From an uncultured Candidatus Saccharibacteria bacterium (GTDB lineage: Bacteria; Patescibacteriota; Minisyncoccia; Phycocordibacterales; CAIZLB01): a stretch of 64,000 nt of DNA. Both the position numbers and the translations under genes were made by a program. A model generated the notes under the pieces. The model saw only the letters and a program-made list of their open reading frames with translations, was not told the DNA's origin and ran no database searches. The stretch spans positions 294,709 to 358,708 of the forward strand of contig CAYQJB010000001.1 of NCBI GenBank assembly GCA_964417855.1, in the 5' to 3' direction. Positions 18,368-20,056 of this stretch are shown piece after piece (within the stretch, counting starts at the first letter, position 1; each line of letters opens with the position of its first letter).

Positions 18368-19840
18368 AGAGTTTGATCCTAGCTCAGGATGAACGCTGGC
18401 GACGTGGATAAGGCATGCAAGTCAAACGGGAAGTTTTGCGATTACATCAAGACTCTTCCAGTGGCGAACGAGGTAGTAACACGTAGGTACGCACCCTTTA
18501 GTCGGGAATAACTCATCGAAAGATGAGCTAATACCCGATAGTCTCTTAGGAGTAAAGTTTTTCGCTAAAGGAGCGGCCTGCGGGATATCAGCTAGTTGGT
18601 AGTGTAAAAGACTACCAAGGCTATGACGTCTAGGGGAGGTGAGAGCCTGACCCCCACCGATGGAACTGAGACACGGTCCATACACCTACGGGTGGCTGCA
18701 GTCGAGAATCTTCCGCAATGGGCGAAAGCCTGACGGAGCGACGTCGCGTGATTGATGAAGTCCTTCGGGATGTAAAGATCTTTTGTGAGGGAGAAAGTAA
18801 TTGATAGTACCTCAAGAATAAGGGGTTGCTAAACTCGTGCCAGCAGCAGCGGTAATACGAGTGCCCCAAGCGTTATCCGGAATTATTGGGTGTAAAGGGT
18901 TCGTAGGTGGTCTTATTAGTCTTATGTTAAAGCCTGGAGCTTAACTCCAGAAGTGCGTAGGAAACGGTAAGACTAGAGGGTGTGAGAGGTCTGTGGAACT
19001 CATGGTGTAGGGGTGAAATCCGTTGATATCATGGGGAACACCAAAAGCGAAGGCAGTATACTGGCACATATCTGACACTCAAGCACGAAAGCGTGGGTAG
19101 CGAATGGGATTAGATACCCCAGTAGTCCACGCCCTAAACGATGTTCATTTGCTTTTCGGAGTATCGACCCTCTGAGAGGCGTAGCTAACGCGTTAAATGA
19201 ACCACCTGGGTAGTACGACCGCAAGGTTAAAACTCAAAGGAATAGACGGGGACTTGCACAAGTAGTGGATTATGTGGTTTAATTCGATGTCAAACGAAGA
19301 ACCTCACCAGGGCTGGAAATTTAATTGAAAGCTCCCAGAAACGGGAGCCCTCGCAAGACAATTAGACAGGTGCTGCATGGTCGTCGTCAGCTCGTGGTTT
19401 GAACTGTTCCCTTCAGTGGGGTAACGAGCGCAACCCTCGTCGTGTGTTACAAGTGTCACACGAGACTGCCCCCTCTCGGGGGAGGAAGGTGAGGATGACG
19501 CCAGATCAGCATGGCCCTTTGATGCCCTGGGCTACACACATAATACAATCGCCACTACAACACGACGCAATACCGCGAGGTGGAGCAAATCGTTATAAAA
19601 GTGGCGCCAGTTCGGATTGAAGTCTGCAACTCGACTTCATGAAGTTGGAATTACTAGTAATCGCAGGTCAGACATACTGCGGTGAATACGTTCTCAAGTC
19701 TTGTACTCACCGCCCGTCAACTCAAGGGAGATGGGAGTACCCGAAGTCTCGCCTAGTGCGGGCCTACGGTAAGTTCATCGACAGGGAGTAAGTCGTAACA
19801 AGGCACGGCTAGCGGAAGCTGGTCGTGGAACAATTCAATT
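18368..19840 (+). rRNA. rrs: 16S ribosomal RNA (no insertions; 3' tail lacks canonical CCUCC anti-SD)
   Basis: AGAGTTTGATCCTAGCTCAG 5' end; GTGCCAGCAGCAGCGGTAATAC; ...GTCGTAACAAGGCACGGCTAGCGGAAGCTGGTCGTGGAACAA 3' end. Confidence 0.9.
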
Positions 19841-20056
19841 TGAAAAATGCGTACATGAATTTCATGTATTAGCTGAATACGGTTGATCGAACTTAATTTA
19901 TTAAGCTCAATGAGATTATGCCTCGAGAATGCATAAGGAAGGTATAACCTAAATATACTGCCTCCTGGGAACAAGGCCAGGCCAAACAGAACAATAATAA
20001 GGACGGTTGAGGTTGTCATTTAGTCGCCAAAGTACATATTTTATATGATAAAAGTA

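Follow-up and report, generated by a model that had tools for sequence, protein, structure and literature searches.

How does a ribosome choose its start codons when its 16S rRNA offers no anti-Shine-Dalgarno (anti-SD) sequence? Pairing between the Shine-Dalgarno (SD) motif of the mRNA and the anti-SD is the textbook mode of start-site selection, and lineages without one of the two partners are natural experiments in initiation. The question is raised by a 16S rRNA gene located in a stretch of 64,000 nucleotides (nt) of contig CAYQJB010000001.1 (positions 294,709 to 358,708), which we refer to as the window. A first-pass annotation of this DNA had claimed that the 16S tail lacks the canonical anti-SD, that the genes lack an SD and that promoters abut start codons, and had read these features as SD-independent initiation from short or leaderless 5' untranslated regions (UTRs). 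We confirm that the observation is real. The sequence statistics support the SD-independent reading, with leaderless starts fitting about one third of the genes.

The anti-SD is replaced in place at the 16S 3' end

The window carries a full-length 16S rRNA gene with an intact helix 45 (Table 1). The residue-level alignment of Rfam places the consensus tail GGAUCACCUCCUUU column for column against GGAACAAUUCAAUU, directly after helix 45 and with 8 of 14 positions matching. The bases AUUCA at 19833-19837 occupy the positions of the anti-SD CCUCC, and the tail quoted in the first-pass annotation is present as written. Because the tail aligns column for column with the consensus, the loss of the anti-SD is a substitution in place inside a normal 13-nt tail, neither a truncation nor an insertion. 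Elsewhere in the window, sequences resembling the canonical tail occur at chance level, with 12 matches at up to three mismatches and 13 expected.

Three other assemblies of the same organism (L001-L003) and two genus-level relatives (L129 and L131) have exactly this tail, which NCBI and JGI assemblies thus share. By exact protein match, the window falls on contig JBAXXP010000001.1 of the metagenome-assembled genome GCA_037127815.1, and identical copies are present in two JGI lake metagenomes and in several Logan assemblies. MurA proteins of 85-88 % identity led to the two relatives, whose gene order 16S - tRNA-Ile - murA is that of the window; two further murA relatives (L130 and L132) differ in synteny and have no 16S nearby.

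A metagenome scan with a pattern spanning the 5' strand of helix 45, and thus unconditioned on the tail, yielded 120 loci. The 122 usable 16S ends analysed comprise these scan loci, two further loci (L007 and L008) and the window. The canonical GGATCACCTCCTTTCTAGGGAG is found in 35 of the 122 ends, while the other 87 have no CCTCC and 79 of those 87 do not contain even a 4-nt remnant; both L007 and L008 lack the anti-SD. The tail variants among the ends without anti-SD, namely GGAAYAATTCAATTTGAA (the type of the window), GGATTAATTCCAATTGGA, GGAATATTTCAAGGTGAAA, GGATCAATTAAAC and GGATCATTTTTTTTAAAAAT, form a graded series at a fixed register. Over the final 450 nt of the 16S, the scan relatives share at most 86 % identity with the window, and therefore the clade without anti-SD is deep. 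Relatives throughout a deep clade thus share the loss of the anti-SD.

Homologues of two window proteins (38-68 % identity) are named as Patescibacteria group, Candidatus Paceibacterota/Pacebacteria, Parcubacteria, Zambryskibacteria, Taylorbacteria and Minisyncoccia. Because of these names, we assign the organism to the Parcubacteria (Paceibacteria) within the candidate phyla radiation (CPR)/Patescibacteria.

Genes of the window lack SD motifs

We considered open reading frames (ORFs) of at least 120 amino acids with the first ATG as start, and counted GGAG or GAGG at -20 to -3 as an SD. An SD-like motif precedes 1 of 42 window genes, compared to 19-24 % at control positions inside genes. The earlier inspection of about 25 start codons had found none with a GGAGG-like SD. 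The sole case is a GGAGGG before 53698 that is part of a mini-ORF of two codons (ATG AAA, stop TAA) starting at 53686. Where a Pfam alignment of the N-terminus fixes the start (Obg, GAPDH, Pyk, uL10, SecA and RpiB), there is likewise no SD, and Pfam upholds the gene names previously given (rplJ, rplL, secD, secA, pyk, gap, obg, gatB, tkt-N, radC and MazF-like). Relatives that bear the anti-SD show a modest SD enrichment (22/106 versus 8/106 in the control window), and relatives without a CCUCC-like tail show no overall enrichment (31/242 versus 27/242).

Promoter boxes are enriched at leaderless distance

We defined a -10-like box as a TATAAT-like hexamer with A2 and T6 fixed and at most one mismatch. 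Such a box stands at a spacer of 5-9 nt to the ATG in 17 of 48 window genes, compared to 4.1 ± 1.9 in 500 shuffles of the same upstream sequences (maximum of 11). This enrichment of about four-fold agrees with the claim that promoters abut start codons. At a spacer of 10-15 nt no enrichment is found in the window (5 versus 4.6). In the pooled loci without anti-SD the 3' end of the hexamer peaks at -9 to -7, with 38/266 compared to 6 at the control position (p = 4e-8 with the window genes included), whereas only 4/106 have it there in the anti-SD-bearing loci (Fisher p = 0.0016 for the difference). The signature expected of leaderless genes, a -10 box about 6-9 nt upstream of the AUG above chance, is therefore found both in the window and in its relatives without anti-SD.

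A T stands at position -1 in about 50 % of genes, which is what a pyrimidine-purine transcription start would give. Even genes that follow the upstream gene closely, at a distance of 18-53 nt, have their own box at the 5-9 nt spacer, which suggests the existence of many monocistronic leaderless transcripts. Genes without a box include ones separated from the upstream gene by 2-3 nt or overlapping it by 4 nt (ATGA), an arrangement suggesting translational coupling.

The first-pass annotation had singled out four -10 boxes as examples. Two of them, at tkt-N (6 nt) and radC (TATAGT, 9 nt before ATG 24294), fit the leaderless geometry. The other two have the wrong spacing, with the secD box 12 nt from the ATG and the TATAAA of the MazF-like gene only 4 nt before its ATG, too close to serve that ATG.

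A proposed mode of initiation

Taken together, these results make it likely, in our view, that this lineage initiates translation independently of SD motifs and partly on leaderless mRNAs. Where transcription starts, where the mature 16S ends and how translation is initiated are inferred from the sequence. The lineage has lost its anti-SD by a change from CCUCC to AUUCA within a normal tail. Without an anti-SD, a start cannot be chosen by mRNA-rRNA pairing, and the genes carry no SD. For about one third of the genes the RNA polymerase would begin on the A of the ATG or beside it, because a -10 box 5-9 nt upstream puts the transcription start there. The 5'-terminal AUG of the resulting leaderless mRNAs would then be bound directly by ribosomes with initiator tRNA and with no mRNA-rRNA pairing. 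The remaining genes would probably depend on short leaders that are A/U-rich and unstructured, on translational coupling or on re-initiation. Most CPR have lost Era, which binds GAUCACCUCC (PMC10582724), and it is conceivable that this loss has relaxed selection on the tail.

A number of points weigh against this explanation. About 60 % of the genes (31/48) have no box at leaderless distance. Scanning for generic promoters of two hexamers gives no excess of matches in this AT-rich DNA (69 versus 72 expected), leaving the positional -10 enrichment as the promoter evidence. The gene starts follow a naive first-ATG rule, with a few corrected, and both the mature 16S 3' end and the transcription starts are predicted. 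With 64 kb of the genome covered by the window, another 16S copy is formally possible. In addition, the pooled loci without anti-SD show a small peak of SD-like 4-mers at -10 to -8, driven by five contigs (L098, L075, L069, L122 and L128), and strong SD-like motifs at canonical spacing do occur in contigs without anti-SD, for example ctaggagatagtcATG and aaaggaggtaaaatATG. Ten ORFs from L098, L075 and L069, seven of them SD-bearing, were compared to Pfam and none has a Pfam domain. The SD-bearing ORFs of these contigs may be acquired or mobile genes, the product of chimeric contigs, or spurious ORFs.

One alternative is that initiation is SD-independent but mainly leadered, as in Bacteroidetes, relying on A-rich, unstructured, Kozak-like upstream regions and possibly aided by bS1, with leaderless mRNAs a minority. 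The 31 genes without a box at leaderless distance would be accounted for, the upstream regions are 40-55 % A and 5-15 % G, and rplJ has an upstream intergenic region of 442 nt. However, boxes are four-fold enriched only at the 5-9 nt spacer, with no excess at 10-15 nt; even genes that lie 18-53 nt from the upstream gene keep their own box at the 5-9 nt spacer; and the T at -1 is consistent with transcription beginning at the ATG. We regard a mainly leadered mode as possible but rather doubtful; it complements the partly leaderless explanation rather than excluding it.

The new tail could also serve in a substitute SD system, ACAAUUCAAUU pairing with a new upstream motif such as AAUUGAAUUGU. 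The upstream regions are A/T-rich, so partial complementarity is common, and 5-mers complementary to each locus's own tail number 106 in the pooled loci compared to 89.7 ± 8.8 for random tails (z of about 1.9). This upstream enrichment is not significant, either in the pooled loci or in the window, where the own-tail score is 11 against 12.3 ± 4.9 for shuffled tails. Moreover, relatives differ greatly in their tails but show no matching change upstream of their genes, a predicted hairpin with the trailer pairs the tail bases (see below), and the passages of Amin et al. that bear on this point report no matched variant SD/anti-SD pair in 128 organisms without anti-SD (PMC6107228). A substitute SD system is thus very improbable, and we retain the SD-independent, partly leaderless mode.

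The former anti-SD bases form a predicted hairpin with the trailer

In canonical relatives CUCCUU is paired with AGGGAG just downstream, with UCU as the loop. The tail of the window can form a mini-hairpin with its trailer in the same register (Table 1). Stems in this register among the sequences without anti-SD are UUCA/UGAA, UUCC/GGAA, UUUCA/UGAAA, UUUC/GAAA, AUUUUU/AAAAAU and GUCA/UGAC, and the intermediate stems UUUCUU/AGGAAA and UUUCCU/AGGGAA are also seen. Of 85 tails without anti-SD, 58 can form such a hairpin (35 ± 4.3 in shuffles), as can 31 of the 35 canonical tails (10.4 ± 2.5 in shuffles). Across relatives (L009-L128) the stem sequence changes while the pairing persists via compensating changes, a covariation described qualitatively here, against the shuffle control. 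The mini-hairpin supports the positional homology of the tail. We hypothesize that the former anti-SD positions are still constrained only as the 5' arm of a hairpin with the first nucleotides of the pre-rRNA trailer, suggesting a constraint from pre-rRNA processing that is independent of mRNA binding.

A conserved trailer does not preserve the downstream CCTCCT

Between the predicted 16S end and the processing stem lies a trailer of 141 nt (Table 1) with 85-86 % identity in L129 and L131, compared to 31-41 % for flanking non-coding DNA. Six of its pairs show compensatory double changes in the RNAalifold consensus of the three sequences. The trailer matches no known Rfam family, even at a permissive threshold. 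It also contains the CCTCCT nearest to the 16S end, correctly placed by the first-pass annotation at 19961-19966; use of this hexamer by the ribosome was one of the outcomes that the annotation had named as contradicting its reading.

Such use would require that the mature 16S runs about 125 nt further, or that it is processed or spliced so that CCUCCU becomes the anti-SD. The processing stem does enclose the region, with a trailer arm that starts only at about 19982, and the enclosed 141 nt are conserved. The hexamer itself, however, is not conserved: it reads GACTCTC in L129 and GACTTCT in L131 within a trailer that is otherwise so similar, and its bases fall in stems with compensated changes in the RNAalifold consensus. 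Among the other loci without anti-SD, CCTCC occurs within 200 nt downstream of the 16S in only 5 of 86 and at scattered positions, which by a rough estimate is close to what chance would give. Nor do the genes carry an SD with which it could pair. The conserved downstream CCUCC that would be expected of an insertion or intron in the 16S 3' end, between helix 45 and a downstream anti-SD, is likewise not found in these loci. Long trailers before the stem arm are also found in anti-SD-bearing relatives, the 16S end and the trailer arm lying between about 0 and 170 nt apart in relatives with and without anti-SD alike. We had considered a long trailer as a sign of 3' extension and dropped it, since the length range is the same in both groups and thus uninformative. 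An extended 16S that uses the downstream hexamer is, on this evidence, hardly credible.

The trailer may be a spacer used in processing, may extend the mature rRNA at its 3' end or may be a small RNA that is co-transcribed. Because it is enclosed by the stem, conserved and folded with compensatory changes, one could speculate that the 141 nt stay in the mature small-subunit rRNA or are released as a stable RNA, and aid the recruitment of mRNA or factors; we think this improbable.

Finally, the window spans 64 kb of genome and its 16S is unlinked from the 23S-5S, but that the odd tail is an artefact or belongs to a degenerate copy, with a canonical 16S carrying GGAUCACCUCCUU elsewhere to supply the anti-SD, strains belief given the full-length Rfam match of 1360 bits, the identical tail in NCBI and JGI assemblies and in relatives, the trait being common to 79-87 loci of a deep clade, the genes without SDs, and the single rRNA gene set that CPR genomes usually carry.

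Other features of the window

Coordinates of the features are collected in Table 1. The rRNA genes (8321-20264) are unlinked and in an unusual order, with 23S-5S followed by about 6 kb of protein genes (hypothetical, FtsW/RodA, SecD, SecF and UPF0259) and then by 16S-tRNA-Ile. The ORFs inside the 23S gene, which contains a group I intron, have no Pfam matches, and thus no homing endonuclease was detected there.

The rplJ-rplL genes (3977-6089) are preceded by an NYN-domain gene at the usual place of rplA and by the 442-nt intergenic region; the usual rplK-rplA are not there. No L1 domain is found in the ORFs scanned within the 64-kb window. This context fits the published overlap of anti-SD loss and uL1 loss (see below), without proving it.

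MurA (UDP-GlcNAc 1-carboxyvinyltransferase, 20360-21925) is fused to an N-terminal HTH_3 (XRE-type) domain, a fusion found in thousands of Patescibacteria homologues. Translation probably starts at ATG 20366, since in L129 the first ATG (20360) is not in frame. Type II toxin-antitoxin genes are located at 21970-22566 and 58067-58585 (a RelB/YafQ pair and a MazF/PemK-like toxin). L131 has no RelB/YafQ pair at the same position, suggesting a recent gain or loss.

Transketolase is split (region 50645-54768) into an N-terminal gene (50714-51574) and a C-terminal gene (53698-54768), with two small ORFs and a 495-amino-acid pilin-like (N_methyl motif) gene in between. On the minus strand at 42318-42402, between an NYN-domain gene and gatB, an intergenic site has a perfect sigma-70 promoter (TTGACA-16-TATAAT, 12/12) followed by an 18-bp hairpin (-31 kcal/mol, z = -7.6). 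It may encode a small RNA of about 65 nt or act as a terminator in both directions. Its 5' part contains the 8-mer AUCACCUC, for which about one chance occurrence is expected in the window.

Table 1 Features of the window, and SD-bearing ORFs of contigs without anti-SD (coordinates on the contig named)
Feature	Position	Strand	Remarks
23S rRNA	8321-12073		3753 nt; Rfam
Second group I-like match in 23S	10491-10740		31.8 bits; weaker, below gathering score
Group I intron in 23S	11132-11403		70 bits
5S rRNA	12180-12288		Rfam
-10 box TATAAT	14595-14600	+	12 nt before secD ATG 14613; implied leader about 5 nt, not strictly leaderless
5' leader arm of pre-16S leader/trailer (RNase III-type) processing stem	18276-18358	+	duplex -59.4 kcal/mol
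16S rRNA gene	18361-19840	+	full-length Rfam match, model 1-1533, 1360 bits
Helix 45, CACGGCUAGC-GGAA-GCUGGUCGUG	19804-19827	+	intact, conserved GGAA loop; 10/10 pairs standard, as read from the sequence
13-nt 3' tail GAACAAUUCAAUU replacing GAUCACCUCCUUU	19828-19840	+	Rfam alignment; identical in L001-L003, L129 and L131
Mini-hairpin UUCA-AUU-UGAA, tail to trailer	19834-19844	+	register of the canonical CUCCUU-UCU-AGGGAG hairpin of anti-SD-bearing relatives
Conserved structured 3' trailer	19841-19981	+	141 nt, about six hairpins; between predicted 16S end and processing stem
CCTCCT	19961-19966	+	chance occurrence, not an anti-SD
3' trailer arm of pre-16S processing stem	19982-20046	+	pairs with 18276-18358
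tRNA-Ile(GAU)	20190-20264	+	downstream of 16S
-10 box TATGAT	20352-20357	+	8 nt before murA ATG 20366 (start corrected by the L129 reading frame)
O-antigen ligase/TPR protein	30819-33203		ORF
SecA	34816-37398
-10 box TATAAT	38433-38438	+	8 nt before ATG 38447 (AI-2E transporter family)
-10 box TATAAT	46895-46900	+	7 nt before ATG 46908
-10 box TATAAT	50702-50707	+	6 nt before ATG 50714 (tkt-N, transketolase N-terminal part); fits leaderless geometry
-10 box TATAAT	51578-51583	+	9 nt before ATG 51593
-10 box TATAAT	56253-56258	-	6 nt before minus-strand ATG 56246
SD-bearing ORF, contig L098	5201-7720	-	contig without anti-SD
SD-bearing ORF, contig L075	192-3677		contig without anti-SD
SD-bearing ORF, contig L069	2924-5596		contig without anti-SD
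SD-bearing ORF, contig L122	10548		contig without anti-SD
SD-bearing ORF, contig L128	3827		contig without anti-SD

Comparison with known systems

Loss of the anti-SD in Parcubacteria and the link between lacking an anti-SD and lacking SDs have already been published, and the core finding is not new in kind. The relevant passages of Tsurumaki et al. 2022 (RNA 28:1041, PMC9297842) report an anti-SD motif in only 48 % of Parcubacteria, an overlap of the lineages without it with the group lacking uL1, and SD helices that are presumably not formed. Their subgroup without anti-SD belongs to the same superphylum and, by homologue names, the same class as our organism, and CCUCCU is likewise absent from the 16S 3' end. 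Unlike those passages, which contain none of these, the present analysis addresses SD usage, promoter-to-start geometry and replacement tails. Full-text searches for 'leaderless' with Parcubacteria retrieved no paper, and what was retrieved for 'leaderless' with CPR, or for Shine-Dalgarno with Patescibacteria, was irrelevant as judged from passages or titles. The leaderless promoter geometry, the tail-trailer hairpin that keeps its pairing and the conserved 141-nt trailer are not found in the literature searched and are incremental additions.

What emerges is a Parcubacteria clade, widespread and deep, in which in-place loss of the anti-SD goes together with genes that have no SD and with promoters that lie against the start codons. 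Gene callers and expression predictors based on ribosome binding sites will mis-model these genomes. Leaderless initiation in CPR bacteria could be tested directly with metatranscriptomes of the source lakes.

The window shares its main traits with the lineages described by Lim et al. 2012 and Amin et al. 2018 (PMC6107228), namely an intact helix 45, a 13-nt tail without a CCUCC-like sequence, no SD enrichment upstream of ORFs and presence of the trait in related organisms. In the passages concerned, organisms without anti-SD are also without SD and have no variant SD/anti-SD pairs. Chryseobacterium, Elizabethkingia, Riemerella and Blattabacterium (Bacteroidetes), some Mycoplasma and Ca. Carsonella likewise have helix 45 and a 13-nt tail without CCUCC, no SD before genes, no compensating variant SD and phylogenetic clustering of the trait. 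The clade of the window differs in belonging to another phylum and in being very deep (at most 86 % 16S identity), and in its -10 box at leaderless spacing, a signature not present in those passages of PMC6107228.

The geometry of the window genes is that of leaderless genes in Mycobacterium, Streptomyces, Deinococcus and haloarchaea, with a -10 (TANNNT) about 6-9 nt before the AUG, no 5' UTR and no SD. These leaderless-rich organisms keep a canonical anti-SD and use SDs on their leadered genes, whereas in the organism of the window the anti-SD itself is gone. The Bacteroidetes ribosomes with a sequestered anti-SD resemble our case in genome-wide SD-independent initiation and in A-rich upstream regions. 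In those ribosomes the anti-SD is reportedly present but masked by ribosomal proteins; in the window it is replaced, and the 16S has no anti-SD sequence to mask.

Finally, the mini-hairpin has a counterpart in the known pre-16S hairpin of many bacteria (...CCUCCUUUCUAAGGA...), in which the anti-SD pairs with the start of the trailer. The register is the same here, with the (former) anti-SD as the 5' arm and the first trailer nucleotides as the 3' arm. In the clade of the window, by contrast, the stem has drifted (from CUCC/GGAG to UUCC/GGAA, UUCA/UGAA, UUUC/GAAA and AUUUUU/AAAAAU) with the pairing retained, and therefore the structure would have outlived the anti-SD. The survival of the former anti-SD bases in a pre-rRNA hairpin points to a processing constraint separate from mRNA binding.

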